A DNA stretch of 64,000 nt from an uncultured Clostridia bacterium (GCA_934754475.1 CAKVHV010000001.1:420228-484227); one strand, 5' to 3'. Counted from the stretch's first letter, positions 16,501 through 31,519 are shown. The notes: generated from the sequence alone by a model not told the origin. Numbers and translations are program-made.

Positions 16501-19500
16501 GTCCACTAATTTTGTATTTTTCCGAAATGATTTGACCACGGAAGTCAATCATTGGAAGCCATAGATGTGCCGACATATTTATATCACTATCAATATAAAT
16601 AATTGTATTTTCACTAGCACTTCCTTGAGAAATACTTGGTGTACTTGCAATATAAGCAAGTTGACTAGCGGTTGTTACATGATAACCAACCTTAGAAATT
16701 CCATTTTTTGTAATTGTAGTAGAAGAAATAGAAGTATGATAGTTTGGATTTCTCCAAGTATCAGATGTAAATACCAAAGTAATTTCGGTATTATATTGCA
16801 TGTAGTTGACGTCACTACCTGGTGTCCAGTCTCTAATAGAATAAACAAATACATTGTTTTCACTACTAAAGTAAATATCGTCTTCGGCAGTTGCACTATT
16901 TTGACCACTCTTTGAGAAGTACATATTCGAAGCATTAGTATACTTAGCACTAACGGAAGCAAAGGTTGAATGTTCTTGTGGATAAGCTTTGATAACCAAA
17001 TACTTAGCACCATTAGTTATAAGTGAATTAGTCGCTCTGAAAATATCATTTGTCTCATTAGCATACTTGTTTTGGTCAAACAAAGTATAATTTGTCGATG
17101 CACTTAGAGCATCAGTTGAAGTTGAATATCCAAATTGGAAGTATCCGTTTCCATAAATATTAATCTTGTCTACGTTGTCTGAGTTCAAAGTATAGTCAGC
17201 AACAATATTGTAAGAAGCGCCATCCGAATCACTAGGAACAGATATTGAGTACTCATACATTCCGTTTTTGGTAGCCAATGCAGAAGCCAAAACCAAATAA
17301 GTACTAGTTCCCGCAATCTTAAAGCCCTTGAAGTCGTAAGATGTTGTTGCCGAAATATCTTGAGCATATAGAGTGAGAGTTGTAAAATCAGTTTTAGTCG
17401 CTTGAACGGTGGCGGAAATAGTTTTTGGCTTGCTAGAAATATTATTTGAAACATAAATATTCTTGCCTTTGTATTCCCCGCTTGTTAGACTAGTGGACTT
17501 AAACGAGCCATAAGTCAATTTTTCCGTTGGAGTTGTTGCCCCTACTGGGTCAATGGTTTTTTGTCCCATCTCAATTATAGGTTGAGTAGAAACGTCCAAA
17601 TATTCTGGATTGACAGTTAATGTCACATTTCTCTTTTCCATGAAACGCAATGTTTCAATCCACTTGTCAGATGTTTGTGCAACTTTTTCTTTTCCAGTAG
17701 TAGCATCAACATTGCTTGACGAGAAGTAAACGGTTTTTTCAAATTTAATCTGATTTTGACTAGCATTATTTACACTATAATAGGTTGTATTGCCTTGACC
17801 GGCGATATATCCTATGTTTTGAGTATTGCTAGTGACTACATTACTATCATAGATTTGAGTTTGATTATACAAGTTATCAAATTTGTCATCATCCCAGAGA
17901 ACTTGAACTGTAGTTTCTTCATTTTCTAGAACGTGAACATTCTTGTAATAAATATCTCCGCCTGTAGTTGTAGTTGGAATAGTATAAGTACTAGTTCCAA
18001 TCTTCAAAATTACACTAGCAGGTGTTCCATCTGAAGCATTAGACAAATATGTTGAAAATTCAATTGTATATTCTCTAGCAAATGATGGAGTAACAGAATT
18101 TTTGTCTTGATATATATTATTGTCCGAAACGGTCAATGTGTTAGACGAATAATAACTTTCTCTAAGCGATTTATCAATCAAAGCATTGTTATAAACACCA
18201 CTTGAAAGGTTTTCGTAATCGACATATTTTTCGGTATTATTGTCCGTTATCTTTACTTGGAAATGTGCAGTATTTTGAGTTGTATTGTTTGTATAAGATA
18301 CTTCGTGTGGAATATATCTCTCACTAGTTTCAATTGCACTAGTATTTTCAATATAAGGAGTTAGAGTTGTCTTATAATAAAGTCCATTGTCACCATTTCC
18401 ATGATATACAACAAATACATAAGTATTCCCCGTAGATTCATGATTTATTTCAAAAATATTAGATATACTAGTATCCCTATTAATAGTTCCAGTTGAAATC
18501 GAATTAGTAGCATTATAAACCATTGAATATGATTGCGAAGAAGTTCCGTTTGAACCGCCCGTCCAACCATCAGGATACACAACTTGAGAATATAATGGTT
18601 TGATTTTTACCAAATTTTTTTCCACATTACGTTTAAAGGAATAAAATTCAGTTGTTGCAGTACCCTTGCCGACTGAGTTGTGACCAGCAACACCATTAGG
18701 TTTTTCAAGTGTAACAAGAACGACAGGATTATATAACAATGTAATTTCTTCGCTAGCAGTAATATTTGAAATTGTCAAACTATAAGTAGTTCCACCTTGG
18801 TCTGCAGTAGTTTTAATTGTTGAACTTCCCAACCTAGAAATATTTTCGTAAACATAGCCCGGAACATAATTATCTACACTAGTAGATGTAAATGAAGGCT
18901 CAACAACAGCATCGAATGTTTCACCACTGATTGTTCCATTATAAGGAACAACAAATGTCTTAAAATAAACTTTGTTATCTGAAGTTGTATAACCATCTGC
19001 AACACCAAACTTAGATTTGAAAGTTCCATTTGTTAGATTAAACGCATCATTTCTAGTTGAAGCAAACTTGATTGTAACCTTATTGGTATAAGTAAAGTAA
19101 GCAGATACACGAATCTCTTTGTTGTCTTGTTGATTTGTACTTGAATTAACGGAAGGATGTTCAGATGTTTTGTTTGTAAGTTTTAGTGTGCCTTCAAAAC
19201 TTCCTGAGCCGTTCATAAGTTCGGTCTTATTATAGCCAATTTCCAAACCATTGTGAGAATATCCGTAAATTATGTTTGTAATACCTTCATATGGATTGTA
19301 ATTATTAACATTGTGTGTTCTAAATTTGTAACTACTATCTTGATTAACCGAAGTTACAAATGTTACTGACCCAAAGTAGCCAATATAATTTTTGTTGCCT
19401 TCCATAGCGAGAATTTCGCTCAAAGGCTTGCCAGTAAACTTGGTATCAGTACTTAAGTTATCGTTAGTAACCAAAGTCTTAAGTCCTTGATTATTCTTTA

Positions 19501-22500
19501 GTGCAGCCAATTTGAATTGATTGCCATCAGGTCTTACATCATCAGTAAATACATTTCCATTAAGGTCACATATTCCGTAGAAGACATTATATGTAGTCTT
19601 TTTCTCAGTTACATATAGCACAATTGGATTTCCATTGGTAGAATTAATATGGCTTTCATTAGCAATGAATGTATAATTGCCATAACCTTGTTTTACAAGA
19701 TTCTCGCTTGTAAATCCAGCAAAGCATTCTTTCATTCCCGCAGAATTTGGTTTGTATTCTTCAAAGCCTTGGTCAAACGAAAGTGTCATTCTTACTTGGT
19801 CAAATCTATCTACAAAGTTTGCAGTCTCGTTTACTTTCGAAGCATTGCTCTTGTCTTTGGCAATAATACCAATATAAATTCCATCTTTTACTTCATAGAT
19901 TCCATTATCTTTTACTTTAGTAACTGGATTAGTATCATTGCCAAATGCAATTGAGCCACCAGTTACACCACTAAAGTTGTTTTGACCATTTTCAGAAATA
20001 AATGATTTATTGGTTGCACCAGTATCTAGTCTAATCATTTCTACCAAGTCGATATAGTATGTTCCAGCAGTCGCACTAGTGATAGTAAATGTGCTAGTAG
20101 CATTATTAAATCCATTGTTGTTGATAGTAAACGAAGGAACTGAAGATACACCATTGGTTGCAATTTTGGCAATTCTGAATGGTGCAATGTAAGAATCAAC
20201 ATTTTCAAAAGGAACATAAGCATCAATAGTAATGCTTTGACCACTTATAAATTTCTTTTGATAGGACGAACCAAATGTAGTAAATTTGTCGGTTGCATAT
20301 TCGCCCGCATAACCCAAATACAAATCTGCCTTATTTTTGGTATCAAAATCTTCATAAGCATTCAAACTTGTTCTAATTCTATACTTAATAGTTACTTCAT
20401 ATAGTCTATTTAGATTTACTTGACCTATAGTATGATTTTTGAAACTACCCTGCAATTTATCATTAACATAAGTAGTGTCAAATGGTATGCCAGTAGTATT
20501 TATATAGAAACTATCCGAGTTTGAAGTATCAAGCGAAACAAACGAGCACGATGTACCAGAGTGTGCATCATTATGTTTAGTCATATCCTTGAATGAATAA
20601 TTTACAAGACCAGATGTGTCGTACTTAACAAAGATATTAAAACTATCAATAAAGTTTCTGTTTGTTCCAGTGCCACAACCAACTATCATATATCCATCAC
20701 TGCGAAGTGGAAGTGGTTTGGAGCATGCACTATCTTGGAATAGAGATACTTGTCCATAAATATTATCAGCACCAATATCAAAAGTATTTTTTGTACTATT
20801 TGTAAGTATTGTTGCAACTTTGGTTACAGCACCGTTATCATAAGTATTAATTTCAAGTTGAACTGGTTTTGCTTGTGAATAGAAAGCAGTATAATAAATG
20901 TTTTCGTTGTTTGCATTAGTAATCTGAACATTATTTACAGTAAATGGAGTATTTGTAGATACTGCAGTAGTTATTGGAGTAGAAACATTCGTGTAATAGG
21001 TGGAATAACCCGAATTTTTGTACCAACTATCTTGGGCAGTATAATCTGTTCCGCTTACATAAGAATTTGTGCCTTTAAGCAAGCCAAATACATAGAATTT
21101 ATCTTTGGAGAATGGAGTGTTTGTGTTCTCGTTAATTTGGTCACTAGCACTAAGTTTAAAATACTCACCTTCTCTTAGATAAATAGATGCATAGTTTCCG
21201 ATACTACTCTCAGTTAGTTCTTGTTTGTTATTCGCTTTTTCGATTTGAGTTACAGAAATTGCACCATTCGCTTTGGAAGCAGCTGCATTTGTTACATTAA
21301 CTCTATCTAGGAATACTTGGTGATAATAATCAAATACAGTTTTTATTTCAATATTATCACAATAATTAACTGTTGTAGTAGATTTTTTGTCAAGTGTATA
21401 AGTTATCGTACCACCAGTTGTAGGGTCAACCCTACCACCGGCATTTGCTACCCATGTAGACGACGATTCAATCGAACAATTGTCATAATTACTAATAGCC
21501 TGTGCGGTCAATTTACTTCCTGCGGTATTCAAAGTTTTTGTAGTTGAACCCGCTGTTATTTGTCCCATATTAATAGCATACGGCATTGTTGTATTGTCTG
21601 AATAAGTAATAATTACCTTAGCACCAGCAACAACTCTAAGAGTATATGTTCCGGCACTAAACTTGCCATCGATATTAGCAGATATAGTTCCAATAACCTT
21701 AGCACCATGCTTAATTTGATAAGTAACGTCTGAACTTGTTTGGTTAGATTTCTCAATTACAAGTGCTTCTTTGAAGGCATTGGTATCAGTATTAAATCTA
21801 TTAACTTCGCCTAACAACGAAATTTGGAAAGATCCATCAAATTTGTGTCTAAAGTTAACTGAATATGTGCTTGGAATATCTACATTTAGACCATCTTTGA
21901 TAGCATACTCAATCCAGTCGCTATAGAAATCAGGTTTAAAGTTAATTGTAGTTGTTATCGTGCCACTATTTAGATAAGTATAGTTTGCATATAGAGACTG
22001 ATTTGGTTTATCAGAAGTAGCACTATTATCTACAACTATCCACGAATTAGTATAGATGTTGACATCGTTACTCTTGGCGATTAGATATAGTTTTGTAAAG
22101 TACCCTACTGTAATTTTGGTGTACTTAATGTCAGGCAGGTCAGCATACATAGCCATTCCATTATAGGTACTTCGTTTGCTCGCATCAATATCACTAACAG
22201 ATGTAGGAATTTGTGAACTAATATTTGTAGCAGTACCAGTGCTTGCATTAGTATCAAATCTACGAGCAGATTCAGCCGCTTTTAGTTCTATTAGAGCAGA
22301 ATTTGCATTGCTTCCCGAAATTGTAGTAGCACTTGCACCATTTTGAGAAAGAGTTGTATAAACATCAATTGTTCCAGCATAACAGCTTGTACAACTTGAA
22401 TTGTTACAACCATGTCCAACGGTGTGTGTAAATTGTTTTTCGGCTATATTTATTCTAATAGTAAATATCTTAAATGTATTAGCACTTGAATTTCTAAAAT

Positions 22501-25500
22501 TACCCGAAAGTGTTGTATTGTTAGCGTCAACCGATACTACCGAACAATCCGAAGTACTAGCAGTAGCACTACCTTCAAGAATAGTCATACCCTTGTATTC
22601 CCAACCACGCATGCTAGTATTATTCAAAACACCAGTATTAAAGTTGAATTTATAAGCATTTGCATTAGTCTTTGAATTTTCACTAGAGAAATATCTATAT
22701 GCCCCATATTGGCTAGCATTTGGAGTGTTTTGGTTAGAATTTCCCGAAGAATCATGTGTAATTCCGCCTAGAATTGTGTTAATTTGGTCTTTAGTCATTG
22801 AAGCATTAGCAGAATAATATGTAACATATACATTATATTTATTACCAGATATAGTACTAGCGGTATAGTACCTTTGAGCATATGCGGTGTTTGTAGTATT
22901 TGAAATAACCGCATGAGTTTGGATATGGTTAGAACCATTTAATTTGGATACATAACTATAACTATCTGTAATGAGTCTAATTCCACTAACTTGAGTACTC
23001 TTAACTTGGCTACCAGTGTAACCAACCATAAGTTCAACAGCCGAAGTATCGCTCAAAGCATTGTTTGTGCTGATTTGAATGTTTACACTAAAGTTAGCAT
23101 TAAATTCATTCAAAATATTGCTACTACCCGAAGTTCTTTGGAAGAATAACCCCATATACTTGGCAGAACTTGATGCAGTAATTGTTTGGATATATTGGTA
23201 ATCCGAATTAGTGTCAACTTGGGCTAAGTTTTCATTAAATGTTACAAGTTTAACTTTGTAGTCAGCCATATTGCTACTAACTCTGTATGTTTTTCCGCTA
23301 ACAATTGGGAAATATCCGTCAACATTAGGCACTATCAACTGATTTCCCGAATTTGTATACGACTTAAAGTTATCCAAATTCAAACCATAATCGGCTACAA
23401 AGTCAATAACGTATGGCGAAGTGCTACTAGCAGTAACCGCCCCGTCAACATATGAGTCATAGATTGTGTACCAGGTAGAATTGTCTGTACTTAAGTACAA
23501 TGCATTAAATGCACCATTAATCGAAATCCTAGTAATATTTTTGTTTCCGCCCAAATTTAGCGTTGGACTTGACGAAGTAGTACTAGTTCCGTCGTAGTAA
23601 ACGGTGTAACTAGGCATAGTACCAGCACTAAACTTCAAGTATCTAGCACTAATTGTATTAGATGCCCACTTCAAAGCCACCGGACTAGCACCCGAACTAG
23701 CCGAAATTGTCTTGGCAGTTTCGCACATAACTGGCTCAACCAAAATATTACTACAAGAGCCATAATAGTTACTCTTTTCGCTGTTTACTAAATAGTTAAG
23801 TGCAAGTGTTACATTATTTGAATTTCTAGCAATCGTTGCAGTAAAGTTTTGTTCCAATGAATTTCCGGTATATGTATATTGCTTTGGAACTTTCAAATTA
23901 CTAGAACCCGAAGAAATTGTGTATAAAGTATAAGGAGTACTTTGAGTTGTACTAGTATCCCCAGTTGTTTTGTATACATAAATTTTAAAGTACTTGAGAG
24001 AATAACCACTTGCAGGAGTTAATGTATATGTTGTTCCCGAATATGATGTCTCTGTCCCATTTGAAATTGTAAAACTATTTACCCCTTGACCAACATTTGA
24101 ACTAGCATCACGAGTTATCATCTGCGGACTAATTCTATTTGTTCGGTGCAAAGTTATTCCCACAAACTGAGCCGAAATATTAAACGTCGTGCCGGTATTA
24201 TAAGTTCCTTTGAGATTTGTGTTGGCTGTATCATACCATGTCAATGGGTCTTGAGCATAAGTACCATTAGTAAGTCCATTAACTTGAGCATATTGTCTAT
24301 AAAAGTTTGAAGCATTAGTAAACTTAACTTCCAAGTTAGTATAGTAATAAATATTAAGAGTACTTATGCTAAGTGTATAATTAGTACCACTAGTATTAGT
24401 TAGCGACAAAGTTGAATTATTGCCATAAGTATTGTTATACTTGTCTTTGATATCAATAGTTCCACGACCATAGATTGTAACCGATGTATTCTTGCCAACA
24501 GAAGTACCATCTTCGTATGTACCAAAAGTTTGTTTTTCGACTAAATATGGAGTATAAGCCGAAACGATAGTAATAGTATCACTATCCAAATAACTAGACT
24601 TGTTAAGCTCAATTTCAATTTTAAGAGTTTTGCAATCAATAAGATAAGTGCTTCCTGATGCAGTAAGTGTCACCTTGTAATTAGTTACATCATCAGCATC
24701 ATTTGTACTAATATATTCTGAATAAGGCGCTTTTGTAGTCTTTAAATTTGTTGCGGCAGCAAAAAGTCTATAACTTCCAAATACAAGTCGGCTTAATTCA
24801 AATCCGTCATCAATGGTCATAGTTGCAGTGACTATTAAGTTAACACCAGACGAAGTTGACGCAAGGTCATAAGTAATTTCCTTTGTGCCATTAGTTCTAG
24901 CCGCTGCAAAGGTTGAACCATTTAGTTTTGCACTAATACTAATACTCTTAATTCCGTCAACCGATTCGCCTTGTTTAGATTTTGCATCATCAACACTATT
25001 AAAGTTAAGAGTAACATAAGGCGCATAAGTAAAGATTATCGAAGAATTTCCGTCCTTCAAATATCCTTTCAAGGTATATTTTTGGTCTTTCTTTCCATCA
25101 ATTGTAATTGTACTTGGATTTAGATTTTGGAAAAAGTCTTTTTGAGTTTGACTACTACTATTTGTAACATTTGGGTAGCCACTATCCGAAGATTCCAAAC
25201 TAATAAGGATGTTTCTGTCAGCCACAGTTGCAATACTATCCTTGTCACCCCTAGTAAACTCAAAGTAGTTTCCATAAACAGATGTCAAAACATATGTGTA
25301 TTTACCAGTCGAGCCATAAGTGGTACTTCCCGATGCTTGCAAAGTCACATTGGCTAGCAAATTAGAACTATAATTGATTGTATTTGCACCAATTGACGAT
25401 GTGTTGTTTTTGGCAAGTTTTACTAATGTTCCGTTTTCACTGCTAGATGTTAGATGAACAGGATCAGGACTACGTCCAGTAGATGTATAAGTATAAAAAC

Positions 25501-28500
25501 TTACATAAGGTATTAATCTGTAGAAATAATCATGTCTTGAGTTGTTGTATTGCAAGCCAGGGTTCTCGATATAAATACCTATAGACTTGGAAATCTGTTG
25601 AACTTTGCTTAGACTAATTGTAACATCACTAGTTACATTTGTACTAGACTTAGAGTTTGTGCTAGGAATACTAAATAGATTATCAAGACTAAACGATTGT
25701 CCTGAAAGTGTTAGAGTTCCGTTGTCTTGGGAATAAGTATATTTACCACCATAGTCTACATAGTACAAGTTGCTATTGTTGTGTAAAATTTTTGAACCAT
25801 TAGCAGTAACAGTTGTGCTATCGCTAAATGAATTTGCACCATTAGATGCATAAGATGTATTACGTGAAATACTAATTTGGTGAATTACTCTAGCACCCAA
25901 ATTACTAAATAATGCCGAATAATATGTGTTTGAGTATACGTTTGAATCATTAGTATCAACCGCAATCTTTTCCTGTTCAATTAAATATAGATAAATTGTA
26001 TAAGGATTAGTCTGAACGGCACCTGACGAGTATCCATCGTTTCCTTCCGAACTAGCAGTTGTATTTGAACCACTTGTGTTCCAATACATACGATATATAT
26101 GACTGCCAAAGTTAAATGCTGAATATCCAGAAGTATCGGTAGTATTCTTAGATAAAATACCCGAACCATATTTAGCTTGTACTTTAAGAGCGGTACCAAT
26201 TACAACTTGACTAAATTTGGTCGAATAAGTATAAAGATTACCACTAGTACTAGATAACGACAAATCATTGCTTGTCTTGGCGGATGTTTTATCATATATT
26301 TTGAAATTAGATAATTCGGTATCGCTAAATTGTGTACCCAATAACTTGACATAAATAGGCACATCTACAGCGGATAATTTTGGATTGACAACAATCGCAA
26401 CAACCGCAGTAGGACTCGCTCCCGCTTGAACCGCATGCCATAACAAGTTACCATCTGACGAATTGGTGTTTGTGACGGTTGTCGTACCATACTTAACAGT
26501 AGGTTTGGTATTATATCCAGTTGAAGCAATTGATAGAGTAACGTTATCATACTCGCTAGAATTAACATAAGTGCTACTACCCATAGTAACTTTGTTTATT
26601 CTATAAGTACTGCTTCCGTCTGTAATATTTATGGTGTACGAATAATGATTGTTTGTATCATAAAGCAAATATTTTGTAGTCGCTGTCGATTCAAGTTTAT
26701 CTCCAAAACTAATTGCGCTACTTCCACCAGTAATACTTCCCGTAAATCCACTAGGTGCAGGACTATCAATTTTCATACTAGTAGTGACGTAATAGTTATT
26801 AATACTAATAGCCAATGCCGATGTCGATGCCGATGTGAATGGGAATATTACAGTCTTGTTGGATGCAGTAAATGAATAAGACCCACTTGTTGCATTTTGG
26901 TAAGCACCACTTGTACTATTGAATGTTGTAAGTGTTGTACTACTTCCAAACTTAATTTGACCAAAATTAATAGCGCCATAATTTTTAGTAATATTAAAGC
27001 TAAGTGTATCATTTAAGAAACAATTGTATGTATTTCCGCTACTTTTATAGCAATAATACGAACTTGCTAGTGTATTTCCAAAAGCAGATATTGCAATCTG
27101 TTGGGATATGGTTACTGCAACAGTTGAGCAGTAAATATTTATTGCAAAACTATTAGAAGTTGGTTTAAGACTAATTGAAAAGGATTTATCTGTACTATCG
27201 TTATACGAACCAAACGAATAATTTGATGGCATAACTGAAGTATTTCCAAGTTTAACATCCGTAATAAATGCCCTAGCATTTTTTGCCACTGTAATTGTAT
27301 AAGACTCAGTCTCGCCCTGCAAAATTGATATATTATTGTTAATAGAAGCAATAAATGAGTCATTTACAGAACTAGACTCTTCATTAAACATCAATGCAGA
27401 AAATGTAGATAAATTTGCTACAAACACAATGTTTGAATTACTTGTTGAAGTAATTGGGGAATTATTTAGATAATAATTAATTGAACCAACGTTATAAAAG
27501 CTTTGAGTGTAATTAATAAGTGGATAACCACGATTGTATTGATAATCTATGTTGGTGTTCAATCCACTTTGAGTAATAAACCAACCATCTTCACCAAATG
27601 TAAAGCCATTGAAGTTAGATTTGTCTTTCATTTGAGATTCACTAGTTCTGCGAGTACCATAACTAGATGTACCCAAAGTTCCCGAGCCTATGTAATAATA
27701 AGCATTGCCAACCGAACCACTACCCGAAACTTTGACAGGGTACATTTTACCAACCCCATGGGATACAAAGTAAACATTTTTTATACTTCCCGAATTAGTA
27801 TTTGTAAGTCCAATATTTTTTCCACTAGTACCACTAGCCACAACAAAATATGAATTTTGAAGATTGCCTGAATTTGAATTAATCAAAAAGAAACTATCAT
27901 CTACGCCAGCATCAAGGCTTACAAACCTAACATATTTTCCACTATTATTTGTACCAACAAAACTAGCATAGCCACTTGTATTTCCGTCTAATCCACAATA
28001 TTCAATAGTTCCACTATTTGTTTGGCAAAGCATGGCTTTTCCACTAACACTACATGTACCACTTCCAACAAATAGATTAGATATTTTTCCATTATTTGTT
28101 TGAACTATTGCTGTACCAGAACTAGTAGATATCACCATATTACTTAAAGTATAATATTTCCCGTCAAGTGTTCCTGAACTCGACAACGAACTAAACCCTA
28201 CAAAGTCATAGTCCATTGTATAAGTATAAGTTGTGCCACCTATTGTCAATGAACTAGGGCTAAAGTCAATATCTGCACCAATTGTATAATTTGTTGTTGG
28301 GTTATTAACAAAGTATGCAAATTGAAGCGGTGTTGTAATATTAGTAGCACTTGAACTAGTTAAATTAGAATTTCTGCATTTTGCTACATCAGTCCAAGTT
28401 AACTTAATATATTTAATATTAATGCTAACAGTTGAACTAGCATTTCCCATTATTGTTTTAATACTATCCGCCAACATTGTGAAGTTGTTTGTTGTTGGTG

Positions 28501-31489
28501 CAGAGCCACGACCTGTAGCTGTCGTATTAATTAGTGTACCATTGCTTACTACATAATAATTCCCTGCACTATTACCATTTGTAATTGTAACTTGAGCATA
28601 ATATGTTTTGCTAGGGAAAGTTAAATTTAGTTTATTATATTCACGGGAACCTTTGACACTAACTGCGGTGGTGCTTGAACCCGAACCCCTTTGATTATTA
28701 GCACCATCTACAAAGGTCCATGAACCACTAGTCGAATCTCCCGAACTATCTATTTTAATACTAAAGTCATATGTATAGTCCAAATCCCAAGTTAATGTAA
28801 TAGTTCTCGGGGTTGTAAGACTTGACGTCACCTTGTTGGTAAGTTTCATGTTGGCTTGAGCAGTATTATGGTCATATTTTTTATTATCTATAATAGTCGA
28901 GCCATATTTAAGTACACCCGTCAAAGAGTCTCCTTCAGCATAATTTCCACCAATATAGAAATACGAAGAAGAACTACTCAAATCGCAGTATAAACTACTT
29001 ACACTACTAGAATAATTGCTACTATTGTAGTAGAATGTAAAGTTTCCGCCAGTAGAAGTAACTTTTGTCAAAACTTTACCTGGGTCACCGGAATAAGCCA
29101 TTATGATTTCCGGCATTGAACTAGTACTATCTGACTCACCAAAGTAACTTGAACTAGACAAAGTAAATGTCACAACTTTGTCTTTTGCAGTTCCGGAGTT
29201 TGAAATTGCAGTAACCGAACCTGTATTACTACCTTTCAGATAGTTGTTTTGATAGTACTTCAGATAATTGCAAGAATACGAGCCAATCGCTACAAAATAA
29301 TTACTACTAATTACTGCATTACTCCAAGTAATCTTAATAGTATCTGATGCCGAATATCCCGAGACTTTGTACACCCAGCCAATTCCCGCATTAACCGAGA
29401 CTTCCGAAGTAGTCGCACTCATAGGTGAACTCGAGCTATTCAAATAAACTAGTGGCGCATCCAAATTCATCGAATTATATGCATAACTATCCAATACGAC
29501 CATAAAGTAAGCATCGTTATTTGCCCAACTATATGTAATATATCTTCGTGTAGTCTCATTAGTAGATGTTCCGCTAGACGAGATTCTATTTGAACAATCT
29601 AGTTTTACTCCCGACGAACTTGTGCTAGATACACTATGTACAACAGTTCCCGTAGCACTGCCATATCTTAGTTCGGCAGTTAATTTCATATTTGCTTTGT
29701 AACCACTACTTACATCAAACCAAATTGTAGTTGTGCCAGTATCCCCCAAATAACAGAATAAATCGTTTGTAAGACTTGAACTTGTGCTAGAGTTGTAATA
29801 GTACTTAAACTTATTTGAACTAACCGCAGATGTTACACGGGTGAGTGTTCTTCCACCAGTACCAAATGTGTATACAGGCATAGTTTCCATATTTTCGACA
29901 TATCCATCAGTACGTGTAGCTGTTTCGTAACCTGACAAATGTAGAATTTCATCAGTACTAATTAGTGGCAAATCTTGTACATTTATTTGTATTAAATATC
30001 CATCTACAGCTGAACTTTCAAAATCCTTATACACTTCATAAGTCAAATCTTCACCAGCTGAGCTAGCACCACCACACGAAGCATATGTTGTAATTAGATA
30101 GTTACCAGGGAAATAAATATAATTCCAAGAACTATATTCTGAGTACGCACTCACTGAAAGATTAGTTAATGAACTGCCAGTACCATACATATTATGAGCG
30201 CTTGAAAAATTAACTGACAATGTGGCTGCTGATTCATTAGAATATTCTTGATTGACTTGATACAAATAACATGTACCTAAATTAAACTCGGCATAATTAT
30301 GCCCTTCATATTTAAATTGAAAAGTTTTGTATAAAGTTAGATAAGTACTATCCGAATACATAATCCAAGGTGTAATGCCTGTAGGACATATAATACCTAG
30401 CCAACGATAGTTATTTCCACTTGCCTTTTGACACAATCCAATACAGTGACCTTCTGAGTGATAAGCAGGAACAGGTACTTGACCGCAATACACACATGTT
30501 GCATATTCTGTTGAAGAGTTGTCATATGTAGTATTACAATGTGGGCAAGTATAACTTGAAGGGTCTGCATTAGGTGTATTAGCCTTGTAACTAACATGCA
30601 CATCTCTGGAAAAAACAACTGAAAAATTTATCATTGAGTGCCATTTTTCATAACTATTAATATTCCCTTCCCATTCATCAGAACCCAAAGGAAGAACAGT
30701 TTCTGAAATAGTTATTTTTCGAACATTTGCAAATATATTATCCCAAGACACACTCCATGAACCACCACCACTATTACTGTTATTTGAATAAGTAAAACCC
30801 GAACCTAAATTCGACGATGCTAAGCTCATAGGAGTTGATGCAATAAAAGTATCACTTGCATCATAAAAATAAACAAGAAGATCGTCATCACAATTATCTT
30901 CATTAGCCGTATTTAAATCGATACCTTCTTGAAGTGCAAAATCAATGCCTGTAATATTACTACTAGTCCAGCTTATATCCATAGCAAATTCTGCCCCAAT
31001 ACTAATAACATCAGGGTCTGAACTTCCATGTGGAGCATTCTCAAGATAATAAATTTCAAAGTTAAAGAGAGAAGAAGTACCAGAGCCATCAGCTGAATAT
31101 CCGCCTTGACTAATATCTGGATCTCCACCACCAAGTGATGCTAGAATTCCAATATCTGAACTACAGCCTTCAGTAGAAATTGTAACTGAATCATAACTTG
31201 ACGGCGGGTTTAAACATTGCCCAGTACAATGTACTCCGTGAAAGTCTGCTAAGCTATTGTAATACTCATGACAATATGAACATGTGCCACCAGGACCGCC
31301 AGTATCAAACGTCACACCGCAATCAGGACATGTCTCAGACCATGCCATAACATGATTTTGCGAGATTTCATTTATCATTACCGCAGAAAAAATTCCTGAG
31401 AACAGCATAACTATTCCCAAAAGGATAACTTTTATTAAATACGAATAAGGATGTTTTACTTTTAATTCTGAATTAACACTTTTTCGCAT
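4532..31489 (-). CDS. Giant (8,985-aa) N-terminally anchored S/T/N/Y/G-rich surface protein with GLUG-motif beta-helix modules; putative fibrillar adhesin, function unknown
   Basis: Single open frame of 26,958 nt. AGGAG sits 7 nt upstream of the ATG and a terminator follows the TAA. The N-terminus is a basic stretch plus one hydrophobic helix (LIKVILLGIVMLFSGIFSAVMI). Repeated GGLVG/GGIAG/GGVIA GLUG-like motifs. The longest alternative-frame ORFs inside it in the supplied track are 116 aa. Confidence 0.92.
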   Translation of the reverse strand: MRKSVNSELKVKHPYSYLIKVILLGIVMLFSGIFSAVMINEISQNHVMAWSETCPDCGVTFDTGGPGGTCSYCHEYYNSLADFHGVHCTGQCLNPPSSYDSVTISTEGCSSDIGILASLGGGDPDISQGGYSADGSGTSSLFNFEIYYLENAPHGSSDPDVISIGAEFAMDISWTSSNITGIDFALQEGIDLNTANEDNCDDDLLVYFYDASDTFIASTPMSLASSNLGSGFTYSNNSNSGGGSWSVSWDNIFANVRKITISETVLPLGSDEWEGNINSYEKWHSMINFSVVFSRDVHVSYKANTPNADPSSYTCPHCNTTYDNSSTEYATCVYCGQVPVPAYHSEGHCIGLCQKASGNNYRWLGIICPTGITPWIMYSDSTYLTLYKTFQFKYEGHNYAEFNLGTCYLYQVNQEYSNESAATLSVNFSSAHNMYGTGSSLTNLSVSAYSEYSSWNYIYFPGNYLITTYASCGGASSAGEDLTYEVYKDFESSAVDGYLIQINVQDLPLISTDEILHLSGYETATRTDGYVENMETMPVYTFGTGGRTLTRVTSAVSSNKFKYYYNSSTSSSLTNDLFCYLGDTGTTTIWFDVSSGYKANMKLTAELRYGSATGTVVHSVSSTSSSGVKLDCSNRISSSGTSTNETTRRYITYSWANNDAYFMVVLDSYAYNSMNLDAPLVYLNSSSSPMSATTSEVSVNAGIGWVYKVSGYSASDTIKITWSNAVISSNYFVAIGSYSCNYLKYYQNNYLKGSNTGSVTAISNSGTAKDKVVTFTLSSSSYFGESDSTSSMPEIIMAYSGDPGKVLTKVTSTGGNFTFYYNSSNYSSSVSSLYCDLSSSSSYFYIGGNYAEGDSLTGVLKYGSTIIDNKKYDHNTAQANMKLTNKVTSSLTTPRTITLTWDLDYTYDFSIKIDSSGDSTSGSWTFVDGANNQRGSGSSTTAVSVKGSREYNKLNLTFPSKTYYAQVTITNGNSAGNYYVVSNGTLINTTATGRGSAPTTNNFTMLADSIKTIMGNASSTVSINIKYIKLTWTDVAKCRNSNLTSSSATNITTPLQFAYFVNNPTTNYTIGADIDFSPSSLTIGGTTYTYTMDYDFVGFSSLSSSGTLDGKYYTLSNMVISTSSGTAIVQTNNGKISNLFVGSGTCSVSGKAMLCQTNSGTIEYCGLDGNTSGYASFVGTNNSGKYVRFVSLDAGVDDSFFLINSNSGNLQNSYFVVASGTSGKNIGLTNTNSGSIKNVYFVSHGVGKMYPVKVSGSGSVGNAYYYIGSGTLGTSSYGTRRTSESQMKDKSNFNGFTFGEDGWFITQSGLNTNIDYQYNRGYPLINYTQSFYNVGSINYYLNNSPITSTSNSNIVFVANLSTFSALMFNEESSSVNDSFIASINNNISILQGETESYTITVAKNARAFITDVKLGNTSVMPSNYSFGSYNDSTDKSFSISLKPTSNSFAINIYCSTVAVTISQQIAISAFGNTLASSYYCYKSSGNTYNCFLNDTLSFNITKNYGAINFGQIKFGSSTTLTTFNSTSGAYQNATSGSYSFTASNKTVIFPFTSASTSALAISINNYYVTTSMKIDSPAPSGFTGSITGGSSAISFGDKLESTATTKYLLYDTNNHYSYTINITDGSSTYRINKVTMGSSTYVNSSEYDNVTLSIASTGYNTKPTVKYGTTTVTNTNSSDGNLLWHAVQAGASPTAVVAIVVNPKLSAVDVPIYVKLLGTQFSDTELSNFKIYDKTSAKTSNDLSLSSTSGNLYTYSTKFSQVVIGTALKVQAKYGSGILSKNTTDTSGYSAFNFGSHIYRMYWNTSGSNTTASSEGNDGYSSGAVQTNPYTIYLYLIEQEKIAVDTNDSNVYSNTYYSALFSNLGARVIHQISISRNTSYASNGANSFSDSTTVTANGSKILHNNSNLYYVDYGGKYTYSQDNGTLTLSGQSFSLDNLFSIPSTNSKSSTNVTSDVTISLSKVQQISKSIGIYIENPGLQYNNSRHDYFYRLIPYVSFYTYTSTGRSPDPVHLTSSSENGTLVKLAKNNTSSIGANTINYSSNLLANVTLQASGSTTYGSTGKYTYVLTSVYGNYFEFTRGDKDSIATVADRNILISLESSDSGYPNVTNSSSQTQKDFFQNLNPSTITIDGKKDQKYTLKGYLKDGNSSIIFTYAPYVTLNFNSVDDAKSKQGESVDGIKSISISAKLNGSTFAAARTNGTKEITYDLASTSSGVNLIVTATMTIDDGFELSRLVFGSYRLFAAATNLKTTKAPYSEYISTNDADDVTNYKVTLTASGSTYLIDCKTLKIEIELNKSSYLDSDTITIVSAYTPYLVEKQTFGTYEDGTSVGKNTSVTIYGRGTIDIKDKYNNTYGNNSTLSLTNTSGTNYTLSISTLNIYYYTNLEVKFTNASNFYRQYAQVNGLTNGTYAQDPLTWYDTANTNLKGTYNTGTTFNISAQFVGITLHRTNRISPQMITRDASSNVGQGVNSFTISNGTETSYSGTTYTLTPASGYSLKYFKIYVYKTTGDTSTTQSTPYTLYTISSGSSNLKVPKQYTYTGNSLEQNFTATIARNSNNVTLALNYLVNSEKSNYYGSCSNILVEPVMCETAKTISASSGASPVALKWASNTISARYLKFSAGTMPSYTVYYDGTSTTSSSPTLNLGGNKNITRISINGAFNALYLSTDNSTWYTIYDSYVDGAVTASSTSPYVIDFVADYGLNLDNFKSYTNSGNQLIVPNVDGYFPIVSGKTYRVSSNMADYKVKLVTFNENLAQVDTNSDYQYIQTITASSSAKYMGLFFQRTSGSSNILNEFNANFSVNIQISTNNALSDTSAVELMVGYTGSQVKSTQVSGIRLITDSYSYVSKLNGSNHIQTHAVISNTTNTAYAQRYYTASTISGNKYNVYVTYYSANASMTKDQINTILGGITHDSSGNSNQNTPNASQYGAYRYFSSENSKTNANAYKFNFNTGVLNNTSMRGWEYKGMTILEGSATASTSDCSVVSVDANNTTLSGNFRNSSANTFKIFTIRINIAEKQFTHTVGHGCNNSSCTSCYAGTIDVYTTLSQNGASATTISGSNANSALIELKAAESARRFDTNASTGTATNISSQIPTSVSDIDASKRSTYNGMAMYADLPDIKYTKITVGYFTKLYLIAKSNDVNIYTNSWIVVDNSATSDKPNQSLYANYTYLNSGTITTTINFKPDFYSDWIEYAIKDGLNVDIPSTYSVNFRHKFDGSFQISLLGEVNRFNTDTNAFKEALVIEKSNQTSSDVTYQIKHGAKVIGTISANIDGKFSAGTYTLRVVAGAKVIITYSDNTTMPYAINMGQITAGSTTKTLNTAGSKLTAQAISNYDNCSIESSSTWVANAGGRVDPTTGGTITYTLDKKSTTTVNYCDNIEIKTVFDYYHQVFLDRVNVTNAAASKANGAISVTQIEKANNKQELTESSIGNYASIYLREGEYFKLSASDQINENTNTPFSKDKFYVFGLLKGTNSYVSGTDYTAQDSWYKNSGYSTYYTNVSTPITTAVSTNTPFTVNNVQITNANNENIYYTAFYSQAKPVQLEINTYDNGAVTKVATILTNSTKNTFDIGADNIYGQVSLFQDSACSKPLPLRSDGYMIVGCGTGTNRNFIDSFNIFVKYDTSGLVNYSFKDMTKHNDAHSGTSCSFVSLDTSNSDSFYINTTGIPFDTTYVNDKLQGSFKNHTIGQVNLNRLYEVTIKYRIRTSLNAYEDFDTKNKADLYLGYAGEYATDKFTTFGSSYQKKFISGQSITIDAYVPFENVDSYIAPFRIAKIATNGVSSVPSFTINNNGFNNATSTFTITSATAGTYYIDLVEMIRLDTGATNKSFISENGQNNFSGVTGGSIAFGNDTNPVTKVKDNGIYEVKDGIYIGIIAKDKSNASKVNETANFVDRFDQVRMTLSFDQGFEEYKPNSAGMKECFAGFTSENLVKQGYGNYTFIANESHINSTNGNPIVLYVTEKKTTYNVFYGICDLNGNVFTDDVRPDGNQFKLAALKNNQGLKTLVTNDNLSTDTKFTGKPLSEILAMEGNKNYIGYFGSVTFVTSVNQDSSYKFRTHNVNNYNPYEGITNIIYGYSHNGLEIGYNKTELMNGSGSFEGTLKLTNKTSEHPSVNSSTNQQDNKEIRVSAYFTYTNKVTIKFASTRNDAFNLTNGTFKSKFGVADGYTTSDNKVYFKTFVVPYNGTISGETFDAVVEPSFTSTSVDNYVPGYVYENISRLGSSTIKTTADQGGTTYSLTISNITASEEITLLYNPVVLVTLEKPNGVAGHNSVGKGTATTEFYSFKRNVEKNLVKIKPLYSQVVYPDGWTGGSNGTSSQSYSMVYNATNSISTGTINRDTSISNIFEINHESTGNTYVFVVYHGNGDNGLYYKTTLTPYIENTSAIETSERYIPHEVSYTNNTTQNTAHFQVKITDNNTEKYVDYENLSSGVYNNALIDKSLRESYYSSNTLTVSDNNIYQDKNSVTPSFAREYTIEFSTYLSNASDGTPASVILKIGTSTYTIPTTTTGGDIYYKNVHVLENEETTVQVLWDDDKFDNLYNQTQIYDSNVVTSNTQNIGYIAGQGNTTYYSVNNASQNQIKFEKTVYFSSSNVDATTGKEKVAQTSDKWIETLRFMEKRNVTLTVNPEYLDVSTQPIIEMGQKTIDPVGATTPTEKLTYGSFKSTSLTSGEYKGKNIYVSNNISSKPKTISATVQATKTDFTTLTLYAQDISATTSYDFKGFKIAGTSTYLVLASALATKNGMYEYSISVPSDSDGASYNIVADYTLNSDNVDKINIYGNGYFQFGYSTSTDALSASTNYTLFDQNKYANETNDIFRATNSLITNGAKYLVIKAYPQEHSTFASVSAKYTNASNMYFSKSGQNSATAEDDIYFSSENNVFVYSIRDWTPGSDVNYMQYNTEITLVFTSDTWRNPNYHTSISSTTITKNGISKVGYHVTTASQLAYIASTPSISQGSASENTIIYIDSDINMSAHLWLPMIDFRGQIISEKYKISGLRTTGQANIMLNSSLTIDGTNSTPSYINSYNDEFTYTSSGNTAYYNYNVDSSMSLLDTTNGATIEGLVIDDFVGTYYNSKNKFNGSIIGSSTNTTILDVEINNVTYTSVSSLALSSNYYFAKFIGTTNGYNVIRNSKSTGSFVCTITGENISASFVIGQSNCNSSDKPIVTDNGISTNEYLSNISITGTGNRVSGGTNLKLAGLISNYTSSSAYAHDIYFEVTGDKPATTNPISNSDLTTNTTFVYHSIFSKTFLATNTDTEFVSSNQTSNFAIRWSNPTTTTRKLKIDSTYSTFTNVDNHTGGTSANSPKIYAISSKNDLLGHLSNIDSSKSYVELRLTQDIDFGYSVWPTVDISSGYTFNGAGYKISNIVLNNYSRDTNSYAMFGTNAGVIKNLYVENIYMSVGVFATYKPSNYALIVSNNTGEILSTSVQGTIDANINNSDSNEVYIGGLIGTNSQALYELEFVGNISIGAFGKNTTSPKYVGGIVGYMNGGSLSKVHSSATINTYGNKTRVNNSSYFGGLVGKHTNISVNNSYYGNYANSEYVASINEFEKTSNSKAYALSGTGTGLEINYFYSSANFSLASANGVTSGTSSGNGIYMLNGTFSSVPTNITNGISDANLKNKTGLNGFDFDNVWYYQTTDEIHTYPYPMLIGNKNTHDVKVELSVEGIDFTDENITSVFELTNDYGYEQIIYGVKDEHTDTTSTKNAIDYYVQVLHSDSIDANKTSNRIKITPKTNYHIVSIVLDGVPFLNYNYRRNPTSSTSAISTDYLNLISSNSNYSGDQKTYARTNNHTLKIVLSKNFNFLGTGINGTKMSRDSITNTISNEYGTLTVSGTTSNGKTNMLKGNSGYYNHSVDNTNYSTWYLPEELHDYYYQNTSGLNSPNSANSLVTFTFEATPRVGDKNSYIATRLIGWVYETYASANSSDRNWDTIKNASLIKYKFNGDGTIGYEIVSNNDTLNYAKNITGFIDINSSTIQTSEIGMSNGKVSSKYITKATLSVTSDKVTDGYYYPVVEYIYTSSVVTALHYHNHLDSCYNSNGELICDDDVSHPFDYTNTCTTGGNTCLNSNNVTIQNVDTSSDITPGDILSEGSRVRIQIQNEKQGSLIGKFARRFYDTSTNSLQIYYYEIEEQYIKAIYKLNETRKSDGSISYEKVYFDSSYVDEANGIFDVSNSRLVTIDGSKEYQTRIEFTLTRSTTNVNSPVNTDGEYAFYMIEKLYDFTFNIFDADRMSETHLEISKESVFGNAISIKNDNGVLKYSFGSENNYVNIPSTMVSKLVSVMGRTLKVSVMLSGNNVIITSQMPDGHVAKLISTTLDSYRLTDQNDSIVARMTNKDVTNQIKYTSYQDVSHTETDKLGIRDKAYLSYNLAFNLVSGTSTKTYTYDYGTVTIIDEKVDLDIKFAKDYYSYFDQFGIDTNIPNYYTNNLSGSTTASAKFNNTTPIISSGQPTLSEILSSIQFATKDSNITSGEDGLTKNTAFTINSSYKLGWLAHMLNNNPDETYKVNGVSYKFKDAYYKISNNLDMSSKFWLPITQFDGVMFSLNDALDSGSINNIKIDIIASNVTGSFDTTNDINSNHVGLIAKSNNAKFIGLTLNNFDINTDLAVSIGNLVGLANSSYFDNINVRNSVICNIKNSNTSDSIAVGGLVGRANYMFAVNQTEITGVDFATNHNNVSAVVGASDYFGKIYNTYAFVNRITTYKSNTGITTSNPTIKFVNANNVVLKNNVHFVNSGVANSDLMFANGNILDNKEFNYLVGTKTVADATSVASANVNITTLNKLDSRVWANNSDNTDSRGTLKLISTAFDMSTTSTSLSTTEATNKGTIYNPYLIQNTQDFVLFVNNMNSNSNNTNAVYYKLTADIDLSGKYINPIILFKANLDGNNHKISGFYLYSDMGLTINGQTYFDSALILENQGKIENLFVVDFHIVNSNLYVSNNDTYGTSALVARNTNSGLVRNVSVVADIISTSEYTTGVVAINTSKVSTLISDGNILGLEYVSGVVGKSTTGSKSTTLGNYANILGYKHIGGVIASAETINVLKDMYNVGTLMISDDGSSTQSVAGVINSSTNASLTISNIYISGSIKLISNVATPTIKVAPLVISYAGGNVILGNSVWLSSVIDNLGSTAYSTDKAVVTTGTTTLESVSSKASNEIIRLSSTFPDTTWDYVNVWSVYTDINGGLPVFKQFNDYIVKLPHDANHSIGYSDDLLDRYFTYVRPDKNTRVMIHENYIVDIDNSETNIQETGLQSMIINLREVVINEDGTIYIYKGATVTLRVTSIIYRHVTTITLGHESSQIENITNTYSRTDDVQDKDEYLGSNTTKNYTGKKLGVRFDMLPSASVLDMYDRNRFDYFVNITEDIDTYDISAEALETTDDTSVRRLIDKITISDTTNNKSASNTNPTLQSIPHGSRVKIELSLNPDIIRDEYTNIRVDYWMLEVDNILTDNTGYNYLLDNKTIVNSLETNDNKFELDKLYNKANYTMFETNGSTNTSEYNISSGKISIDFVATAETSGNYVISLIKQWLVQVKFKVNTDIGFDYPIAYVNGYENVSAVEKAILETGDSQVKSAYQINQKNLGDKDNNNTISTQSYNLNYYAYSNGVLTTRLLDAGIYQKESTNYNYNDTDNLTNKDYMNTTFITKMFVDHNASINFSTYSKETYTFTGFTTKSGSNDVSLSNVTNTIVVGGESLELYTYRIDALTNAFYGDSMIVANYIPSKHYINTIVDKGGELEYNTENGVVSAPSEVPNSSSTTTLTGTDITSEVRHGTNITISLLPDNKYVYDKCCIRYYVYKDVENNGTTTRIYYNQSNSTWESNTQNITDNYLPVVQKYVNGVLADNKTTLKTLETTYNVESNGATTGDTNYSYELKIDNVVGNIEIHVNYVRYYWNDEPTTSTLQGGGTKTNPYRISKASDWGYIVNTSNASNEYYKDKYFMVTNDIDFASRFTPTLNKFAGNIFGNGYTFNNIVLDSHRNLGITTRHASGVAQDSEYTYGMSEFDSTTRTTKYGLINTLETSGLITGLKFAGVNIIASENNNFGSNKSTVSLIAENNGKLDNIQILSDADNSSLYLIENNPSLSSASGAYTVAFGGIAGVNKGIISNSINNATLNYSIDNSSNNQSITQFGGIAGANYGQIINTKNFGSLSYIKNSLNFVADKDKLIQGISFNIDTNAKDVLVYNVVSLGTISNTTSTNVICNNVGNVLNAYSTADYPEFISDKTLGYATLGINDYSSSTTVTDFGLWIEKAGVESITLSSLKKTIGTSDYYILENALHLAWLSRATTYNNAEIQGKTFVIASATPIDLSGRYFTPINSGYNNSFNIIGIAKNKDDILASDLLEDADIENVKISGLTIESNSYAGIYNASMNENLIYSAFINTISNSTIRGLDFENVDILTFNSSAVISGLVSGTSKITNCNYISGNIFGYNNKQITERNTLISGLVGIIKDTTNISASTVTGYVNGTQVLHESYEFGNDLGGNISALNNNVYASGMVSSVNDNAVLEESYFNGTIEIYNTDNSHSGYVNYLYGSVQNNYVKGKIISHYANNNISGLVNEIYGGANVINNYVALDLNLTSGNAYVLGAINGSASGYNVSKNYYLVDSSSTPKIGQGIQGTPSGMSGTVASNVIQISSSNLCNQKTFKNDSTWDFDDIWIYINHINWDYPVLRAIYGGDTTDIEVTIYNPHKYSDDTNQLGNLNLDNNDILFKNSDNKVESIYGNIENSTEFSDTTELKFTYSIITDEVGNFIISNTSTGLITSTLFGELQKAGTEVGGVTLTEDQTNYQEYADTLDNADIIISQTIDKVTYGLVITFNERVFNVTINSTLTADVGTDGVQDSDYMTVLLVHKNSAGEVDHAYSINLRNNQSYTFENIYNGEYDIVSQNDGRDMTTDSYGTYEIYVFYPMFYLNSSAHSYVTLNQNVSHNPTLNANYLIASYTQYTTIDTINTQNCSINAFGSFNLDTITRDVEISITLNKPYEYWLHESATNM
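5486..6715 (-). repeat. GLUG-type beta-helix module G of the giant protein (aa ~8259-8668)
   Basis: Opens GTSDYYILENALHLAWLS..IASATPIDLSGRYFTPI. Contains ISGLVGIIKDTTNISASTVTGYVNG. Closes DSTWDFDDIWIYINHINWDYPVLRAIYG. Confidence 0.65.
6740..7801 (-). repeat. GLUG-type beta-helix module F (aa ~7897-8250)
   Basis: Opens GGGTKTNPYRISKASDWGYIVN..FMVTNDIDFASRFTPTL. Contains FGGIAGVNKGIISNSINNATLNY and FGGIAGANYGQIINTKNFGSL. Confidence 0.65.
9932..11023 (-). repeat. GLUG-type beta-helix module E (aa ~6823-7186)
   Basis: Opens GTIYNPYLIQNTQDFVLFVNN..YKLTADIDLSGKYINPI. Contains YVSGVVGKSTTG and HIGGVIASAETI. Closes TTWDYVNVWSVYTDINGGLPVFKQF. Confidence 0.65.
11060..12070 (-). repeat. GLUG-type beta-helix module D (aa ~6474-6810)
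   Basis: Opens LTKNTAFTINSSYKLGWLAHML..YYKISNNLDMSSKFWLPITQFDG. Contains AVGGLVGRANYMFAVNQ. Closes LDSRVWANNSDNTDSRGTLKL. Confidence 0.6.
14534..15577 (-). repeat. GLUG-type beta-helix module C (aa ~5305-5652)
   Basis: Opens SPKIYAISSKNDLLGHL..RLTQDIDFGYSVWPTV. Contains YIGGLIGTNSQ, YVGGIVGYMNGGSLSKV and YFGGLVGKHTNISVNNSYYG. Closes GLNGFDFDNVWYYQTTDEIHTYPYPMLIG. Confidence 0.7.
15590..16690 (-). repeat. beta-helix module B (aa ~4934-5300), first member of the B-C pair
   Basis: Opens VGYHVTTASQLAYIASTPS..IIYIDSDINMSAHLWLPMIDFRGQI, the same cap pattern as the other modules. GLUG motifs are degenerate here (LAGLISNYTSS). Ends with FAIRWSNPTTTTRKLKI. Confidence 0.5.
27512..28342 (-). repeat. 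Solitary beta-helix module A (aa ~1050-1326)
   Basis: Opens NITTPLQFAYFVNNPTTNYTIGADIDF. Has short G-x-S/N rungs (NNGKISNLFVGSG, NSGTIEYCGLDG, NSGSIKNVYFVSHG). Closes SNFNGFTFGEDGWFI..YQYNRGYPLINY. Confidence 0.5.
30431..30553 (-). other. Cys6His2 knuckle motif, copy 2 (aa 313-353 of the giant protein)
   Basis: YTCPHCNTTYDNSSTEYATCVYCGQVPVPAYHSEGHCIGLC has the same Cys/His pattern as copy 1. Confidence 0.6.
31214..31339 (-). other. Cys6His2 knuckle motif, copy 1 (aa 51-92), immediately after the N-terminal membrane helix
   Basis: SETCPDCGVTFDTGGPGGTCSYCHEYYNSLADFHGVHCTGQC: CxxC-x12-CxxC-x14-CxxxC with conserved His residues. Confidence 0.6.
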
Positions 31490-31519
31490 GGTTTTCTCCT
31501 AAAATTATTATTTGTAAAA

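Follow-up and report, generated by a model that had tools for sequence, protein, structure and literature searches.

The gene considered here lies in a 64,000-nucleotide stretch of the genome of an uncultured human-gut Clostridia bacterium (GCA_934754475.1 CAKVHV010000001.1:420228-484227; the window, numbered from its first letter). On the minus strand the window encodes a giant GLUG-type surface protein of 8,985 residues, and close to the N-terminus of this giant stand two short blocks of Cys and His residues, which we call knuckles. The features at the locus are as follows, with amino acid (aa) positions counted in the giant:

4532..31489, minus strand: giant open reading frame (ORF) of 8,985 aa (the translation of 4535..31489), S/T/N-rich, with GLUG-type beta-helix modules and carrying both knuckles.
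31496..31500, minus strand: Shine-Dalgarno sequence AGGAG, 6 nt upstream of the ATG at 31489.
31343..31489, minus strand: putative export signal, aa 1-49, with a K/R-rich n-region that includes the genus-wide motif KVKHPYSYL, a hydrophobic core (aa 21-39, 31373-31429) and a candidate cleavage site HVMA/WS.
29846..31348, minus strand: hypervariable head, aa 48-548, containing both knuckles.
31214..31339, minus strand: knuckle 1, aa 51-92, reading SETCPDCGVTFDTGGPGGTCSYCHEYYNSLADFHGVHCTGQC; candidate ligands C54, C57, C70, C73, H84, H87, C88 and C92.
30554..31213, minus strand: segment 1, aa 93-312, which separates the two knuckles; an orphan domain, probably rich in beta structure.
30431..30553, minus strand: knuckle 2, aa 313-353, reading YTCPHCNTTYDNSSTEYATCVYCGQVPVPAYHSEGHCIGLC; candidate ligands C315, C318, C332, C335, H344, H348, C349 and C353.

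The initial annotation had reported Cys/His motifs at these residues, within 30431-31339, and on translation both the sequence and the coordinates are exact. Knuckle 1 is spaced CxxC-x12-CxxC-x14-CxxxC with His at 84 and 87, knuckle 2 is spaced CxxC-x13-CxxC-x13-CxxxC with His at 344 and 348, and in both of them two His fall within the five residues preceding the last Cys pair. The spacing pattern behind the tail GxHCxGxC that the two were said to share is thus sound, while the literal motif is not, since knuckle 2 reads GHCxGxC. Cys makes up only 55 of the 8,985 residues of the giant (0.6%), and 12 of these lie within the two 40-aa blocks; random placement of 55 Cys, repeated 200,000 times, produced six Cys inside a span of 45 residues on 71 occasions. 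The duplication is real: the knuckles align with each other at 36% identity (BLASTP E 4e-4), a profile of the unit finds further copies in two other giants, and each of the two knuckles is the other's best match among 13 units once knuckle 1's own orthologue is set aside. The wider claim, that each motif heads a duplicated segment of about 260 aa, does not survive, as only the knuckles themselves, about 44 aa, align by BLASTP or phmmer --max, and neither program detects similarity between segment 1 and segment 2. Segment 1 is without a homologue in 10 other giants or among 1.84 billion representative proteins, and segment 2 (from aa 354) has a conserved counterpart in the nearest full-length orthologue, from Clostridiales bacterium UBA11490 (G025). 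Two other places in the giant were considered as remnant knuckles and rejected for want of a match to the knuckle profile: a CxxC motif at aa 3028-3036 (about 22382-22408, minus strand) and a His/Cys cluster at aa 6025-6066 (13292-13417, minus strand).

The same module recurs in two related giants. That of genome G013 (10,781 aa) carries eight head-to-tail units of 45-60 aa at aa 1381-1823, and at aa 1090-1280 that of G032 (9,940 aa) carries two units that are clear and a third that is degenerate; profile matches to these units have E values mostly between 1e-12 and 1e-16, with two units weaker. Aligned, the 13 units give the consensus xxTCPxCG-x9-11-CxxC-x10-12-CG[YW]-x-C-x-C-x-H. Every one of them keeps the first four Cys unchanged, and the units, old and diverged, are mutually 13-44% identical. 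Among 41 genomes of the genus, profile searches recover the full module only in G013, G032 and the source genome itself (G000), where the unit profile has no other good match. When 400 genomes were sampled from the order and 400 from the phylum, only generic half-matches (profile positions 2-30) came back, in proteins of ordinary size, and Pfam and NCBIfam gave no match above threshold for the N-terminus of the giant, the whole protein or the arrays of G013 and G032. A word-index search over 5.8 billion proteins found nothing for the G000 head and one match to the G013 array, an 89%-identical fragment; an exhaustive search of the 1.84 billion representatives returned nothing beyond fragments: some of the N-terminal signal, one that is G025-like and one of knuckle 1. 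Two scans of JGI metagenomes were without matches. As judged by these comparisons, the module is a rare, lineage-specific repeat family, so far found only in giant surface proteins of one small-genome, spore-forming genus of gut Clostridia.

Where the knuckles lie relative to the membrane bears on what they can be. The giant has one hydrophobic stretch, aa 21-39, and no second transmembrane segment, and in 11 of 11 giants examined the flank on its N-terminal side has a net charge of +2 to +6 and the C-terminal flank is neutral or negative. Because the N-terminal flank is positive and the hydrophobic stretch is the only one, the positive-inside rule would place the bulk of the giant outside the cell and the knuckles in an extracytoplasmic position. 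The orientation proposed for the helix, as a signal or signal anchor, thus agrees with all 11 giants. The position reported, immediately outside the membrane anchor, is no characteristic of the module: the units of G013 and G032 lie more than 1,000 residues from the sole transmembrane segment, and since the module starts at aa 1381 in one and aa 1090 in the other, its place beside the anchor in G000 is incidental. Because a possible signal-peptidase I site of VxA/AxA type follows the hydrophobic core at a distance of 8-16 aa (HVMA/WS in G000, GVYA/SW in G025), aa 1-49 may be a cleaved signal peptide, not a retained anchor, and cleavage after A49 would leave knuckle 1 starting 4 residues from the mature N-terminus in both G000 and G025. 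Directly before the hydrophobic core, every giant of the genus carries the motif K(P)NFKVKHPYxYL[IF]KS (31430-31489, minus strand, in the window; also the giants of G005-G034, loci L008-L014), which is often the sole part conserved between giants and looks like this lineage's own counterpart of signal-peptide motifs such as YSIRK or KxYKxGKxW.

The knuckles belong to a swappable head cassette, because similarity between G000 and G025 breaks off across the stretch that holds them. The two giants are 83% identical overall and 15-32% identical over aa ~50-550, and their DNA is 95% similar through the promoter and signal peptide, stops being so at 31348 (codon 48) and resumes at 29845. A second hypervariable stretch, aa ~1301-1750 (26240-27589, minus strand), has 25-50% identity to G025, against 80-99% elsewhere.

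Five of the eight G013 units contain 7 Cys, an odd count, and 1 His, which together make eight potential ligands, and all eight units contain at least one His; the G000 units have 6 Cys and 2 His in the corresponding part, again eight potential ligands. Read from sequence alone, the second half of the unit offers H, H, C, C in G000 and C, C, C, H in G013. FHG and YHS in the G000 units may replace the CG[YW] of the sister units, a metal-ligand-type exchange of Cys for His that is only suggestive. Eight ligands would suffice for two tetrahedral sites, and the ligands may pair in sequence, as a Cys4 ribbon followed by a His2Cys2 clasp, or cross-brace in the manner of RING and PHD domains. Conservation of Cys and His in homologues, which the initial annotation had set as the test of its claim, comes out differently in different relatives. 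The G013 array and the 89%-identical metagenomic fragment (P0010) differ by 40 substitutions in 365 aligned positions, and none of these falls on the 44 Cys or the 8 His (hypergeometric P=0.0015); in G025 the pattern differs, although its mature part also begins TCPNCG and the arrangement it has in place of the pattern keeps its 7 Cys and 2 of 3 His in the second, G025-like fragment.

Structure prediction is consistent with a metal site. AlphaFold2, given a 13-row alignment of the units, models knuckle 1 with a mean predicted local distance difference test score (pLDDT) of 81.7. In the model, strands 3-5/12-14 and 20-21/28-29 flank both CxxC pairs, which are thereby carried on two beta-hairpins, and a helix over L80-C88 brings H84 and C88 one turn apart. 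The same method applied to aa 45-360 as a single sequence gave a pLDDT of 34, unusable for segment 1. Foldseek found no significant neighbour of the knuckle 1 model in the PDB (all E > 1); the neighbours listed, all non-significant, are every one zinc-binding (C2H2, PHD and RING-like domains, ribosomal ribbons, Sec23/24). The unit profile, searched against PDB sequences, is led by the zinc-finger domain of DnaJ (2ctt, E 0.0018, a match spanning 23 of 51 profile positions) and by zinc ribbons of ribosomal proteins and RNA polymerase, with spurious Kazal matches mixed in. In Pfam and NCBIfam the sub-threshold scores go to HypA (14.5 bits, cut-off 28.9), DZR (12.8, cut-off 27.3) and YnfU (11.2, cut-off 36). 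A match to DnaJ in G023 proved spurious, being one between knuckle 2 and the DnaJ zinc finger.

We consider it somewhat probable, from these sequences and the model, that the knuckle is a self-contained extracytoplasmic mini-domain whose eight Cys and His ligands hold structural metal, most likely zinc. The giant would be exported by way of its N-terminal signal, and each knuckle of about 45 residues would then fold around two metal ions into a rigid bead, in which two beta-hairpins hold the CxxC pairs, as they do in a zinc ribbon, and the His-His-Cys-Cys tail (Cys3His in the sister units) supplies a second set of ligands. The eight beads of G013 would form a tandem rod, and in the variable head of G000 two old, diverged beads would stand on either side of an orphan domain. 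Bound metal could in this way take the place of disulfides, making a tiny domain without a hydrophobic core rigid and resistant to proteases, and the knuckle may serve as a cap or spacer for variable head domains. What the analysis shows is the sequence pattern, that the copies are homologous, how they are distributed, that their Cys and His are conserved, that Dsb genes are missing, and what fold is predicted; metal identity, stoichiometry, export, signal cleavage and structural role are all things we infer.

Several observations weigh against this interpretation. The nearest full-length orthologue, G025, has 7 Cys and 3 His in another spacing and is without the second knuckle. The sole near-relative of knuckle 1, at the end of a gut-metagenome contig (L073), carries H87N and C88R and has a TGA at the equivalent of codon 92, 15 nt before the contig ends; it keeps C54, C57, C70, C73 and H84, and its stop may mark a truncated or pseudogenised allele or be an assembly artefact of the contig end. 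MAFFT sets the His of the G000 units two columns off the Cys of the sister motif CG[YW], the matches from Foldseek and from the PDB profile search are non-significant or limited to the generic CxxC...CxxC half, and the assignment of export draws on a single argument, the positive-inside rule. As a separate observation on L073 (2129-2407, gut metagenome ERZ943904), its signal-peptide DNA is 100% identical to that of G000, and it has the identical AGGAG upstream.

The annotation had left open whether the motifs form extracytoplasmic disulfide knots or metal sites. A knot with three disulfides per unit, as in EGF-like, Kazal or VSP-type repeats, would suit the extracytoplasmic location and the even Cys count (6) of the G000 units, and the profile weakly matches Kazal/ovomucoid domains (E about 0.004-0.07), although those matches span just 23 profile positions. 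The machinery, however, appears to be missing: G000, at 97.6% completeness, is without Thioredoxin_4/DsbA-like PF13462, DSBA PF01323, DsbB PF02600 and VKOR PF07884, all of which score in control genomes. The host is moreover an anaerobic gut Clostridia species, and exported proteins of anaerobic Firmicutes show no bias toward even Cys counts (PMC2823432). The odd count in most G013 units, the His that are all conserved along with the Cys, and CxxC pairs modelled on hairpins, which is the geometry of metal knuckles, also argue against disulfides. Because Dsb and VKOR genes are absent, Cys counts are odd, His is conserved and the model is ribbon-like, we favour metal and regard disulfide knots as quite unlikely. 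The motifs could instead be ordinary cytoplasmic zinc ribbons, with the helix as a reverse-oriented anchor (N-terminus out, C-terminus in); CxxC...CxxC ribbons are usually cytoplasmic, and the weak matches to HypA, DZR and YnfU point the same way. Yet about 9,000 S/T/N-rich residues, GLUG modules included, would then lie in the cytoplasm, this reading runs against the flanking charges of all 11 giants, and the G013 and G032 modules are far from the only transmembrane segment, so that we find it scarcely credible. A Gal4-type Zn2Cys6 cluster was rejected because spacing and context do not fit. A SCIFF/ranthipeptide precursor, suggested by six Cys in forty-five residues, was rejected as well: there is no NCBIfam match at E<=1, and where such a precursor would be a small stand-alone peptide with a radical-SAM maturase nearby, the motif here is an inner part of a protein of 8,985 aa whose gene has housekeeping, sporulation and ABC-transporter genes as neighbours.

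Two further alternatives accept extracytoplasmic metal and differ in what the module is or does. It might not be a family of its own at all: the 'zinc-stapled' stalk repeats found in gut Firmicutes (ZBD1/ZBD2 = CTD2/CTD4 of the Thomasclavelia ramosa IgA protease) could include it as a far-diverged member. The setting, the extracellular part of giant Firmicute surface proteins, is the same, and so, as candidates read from sequence, would be the ligand sets of the second site, 2His+2Cys and 3Cys+1His (PMC12237041); the local motif CPDCGVTFDTGG resembles CSVCGKYFDKDG, which an M64 peptidase from the same order has in its ZBD-like stalk, and the spacing H-x11-14-CxxCG in G013 resembles that of ZBD-type repeats. 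An hhalign comparison of the 13-unit profile with that stalk nevertheless gives a probability of 1.4%, where the stalk, from the M64 peptidase of G105 (L083), stands proxy for any T. ramosa sequence and is called ZBD-like by position and motif only. The unit profile also finds no such proteins in G000. The architecture differs too: ZBD sites are placed between three-stranded sheets, while the two CxxC pairs of the present unit make up an internal Cys4 set. We judge such membership unlikely. The knuckles might, on the other hand, be functional and not structural, as a metal-dependent binding tip of the adhesin, for a ligand, partner cell or host, or as a rubredoxin-like iron site at the exposed mature N-terminus. 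They stand in the most variable 500 aa of a protein otherwise 80-99% conserved, which is typical of an exposed interaction surface under selection; cleavage at A49 would bring knuckle 1 close to the new N-terminus in G000 and G025 alike; and CPxCG...CxxC is also the rubredoxin motif. Against this, the eight-unit array of G013, without intervening domains, looks like a rod or spacer, no redox genes are among the neighbours and no partner is known, and a functional site of this kind seems very unlikely. The module might also be a hitherto unrecognised extracellular two-metal 'ribbon-plus-clasp' domain, which after signal cleavage would be the outermost N-terminal tip of the 9,000-residue fibre and a swappable part of a hypervariable, metal-dependent recognition head, with the same unit amplified in relatives into a rod of eight beads; we hold this to be distinctly improbable. 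If it were true, these small-genome gut Clostridia would need extracellular zinc and anoxic conditions for adhesion or partner recognition.

In textbooks, structural zinc sites belong to proteins of the cytoplasm. Zinc ribbons and rubredoxin-like knuckles (DZR PF12773, HypA PF01155, eL43, L37ae, L32, TFIIS/RPA12) share with the present module two CxxC pairs, 12-13 residues apart, on hairpins that are here predicted, but they are cytoplasmic and bind one zinc, whereas our module, as far as its signal indicates, is exported, has four extra ligands and is tandem in relatives. The cysteine-rich domain of DnaJ resembles the predicted unit in having eight ligands, two metal centres and CxxC hairpins in about 70 aa; it differs in its four CxxCxGxG motifs, its cytoplasmic location and its lack of His ligands, while the present units have CxxCG in some cases and no GxG. 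Predicted zinc-stapled extracellular mini-domains were first described in 2025, in the stalk of one gut-bacterial IgA protease (PMC12237041, PMC12415215). These are ZBD1 and ZBD2 (CTD2 and CTD4) of the M64 IgA protease of Thomasclavelia ramosa, 'metal-associated periscope domains' of an extracellular stalk, for which structural zinc sites of 2His+2Cys and 3Cys+1His and no disulfides are predicted; they are without a close structural homologue, and small-angle X-ray scattering shows an extended rod (PMC12237041, PMC12415215). The likeness lies in small extracellular Cys/His modules, in a predicted metal in place of disulfide or hydrophobic core, and in what may be the ligand sets of the second half. 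The differences are that the T. ramosa domains have about one site per three-stranded sheet of 35-40 aa and occupy the wall-proximal C-terminal stalk, whereas the present unit has eight potential ligands in 45-60 aa and sits in a hypervariable N-terminal head. Among PDB sequences, no IgA-protease chain was matched by the arrays, by a His/Cys-rich ORF of G000 or by the ZBD-like stalk of G105. Given the hhalign result and the differing architecture, the module would work like the T. ramosa domains and is not a demonstrated member of them. The zinc-stapled logic is known; the double-CxxC ribbon with a His/Cys clasp is a new, different and much rarer module.

The host protein shares with the GLUG beta-helix surface proteins and adhesins of Firmicutes the GLUG module (Pfam PF07581, E 3.3e-6 on aa 5305-5652 scanned alone), the N-terminal export signal and the S/T/N-rich composition, but the remaining ~8,600 aa are without a match in Pfam and NCBIfam scans, no LPxTG signal was found in the protein, and the signal motif KVKHPYxYL is genus-specific. 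GLUG modules were also considered upstream of the G013 and G032 arrays and rejected, with no Pfam GLUG match and no phmmer similarity to the module of G000. The source genome comprises 1.36 Mb in 5 contigs, of which the knuckle-bearing giant takes up about 2%, and its relatives are metagenome-assembled genomes from the human gut labelled Clostridiales or Clostridia; it belongs to a spore-former, since SpoVAD and YunB are among the sporulation genes near the giant. The N-terminal 700 aa are matched in 17 of 61 related genomes, every one of the same genus, and in nearly every case the matched part is the start of an open frame that runs to 7,000-10,800 aa; such intact frames across the genus are orthologues or paralogues of the giant. 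The C-terminal ~40 residues (LDTITRDVEI.ITLNKPYEYWLH..., 4535-4750, minus strand) are kept in most giants of the genus despite varying heads and are a candidate cell-attachment or secretion element. Across all contigs G000 has 12 open frames longer than 1,500 aa, together roughly 10% of the genome, with sizes that include 8,988, 8,568, 7,802, 5,153, 3,622 and 3,395 aa and, in most, signal-like or lipoprotein-like N-termini.

Other proteins of the window and of G000 were noted as well. Within the window, at 41159-43804 on the plus strand, an 881-aa ORF with a lipoprotein-like N-terminus (MKKTFIIITSLLLICVMLIGC), no Pfam match and an otherwise extremely N/D/T-rich sequence packs 13 Cys into a stretch of about 60 residues in which CKLCKNKYTCSDNGVCNSC and CTSCKNTLVLDNNNNCSSC occur; it forms a second exported Cys-knuckle cluster in the window, unrelated to the knuckle profile. 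Elsewhere in G000, C4:104748-108378 (minus strand) encodes a 1,210-aa M64-family (igalysin-like) metallopeptidase (HEFGHGLLGLGDEY, with a C-terminal transmembrane segment), a homologue of the gut IgA-protease family with repeat domains in place of the ZBD stalk; its close homologue in G105 (L083 607..3963) carries the ZBD-like His/Cys stalk. A 545-aa ORF at about 208,500 on C1 (plus strand) and a 667-aa ORF on C3 (minus strand) are exported and contain canonical 'H..HW..CxxC...H' His/Cys knuckles, and in one such lipoprotein of G000 the knuckle follows directly after the lipobox (GHTHEW...HWKKCTGC...HTFDGGTCTVCGY).

If the structural metal site is confirmed, it would support the view that tiny extracellular domains of strict anaerobes owe their rigidity to metal ions where disulfide machinery is missing, and the knuckle, at 45 residues, would be a compact and easily expressed object on which to test it. 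The hypervariable head cassette that carries it is relevant to how uncultured small-genome Clostridia contact their hosts or partner cells.

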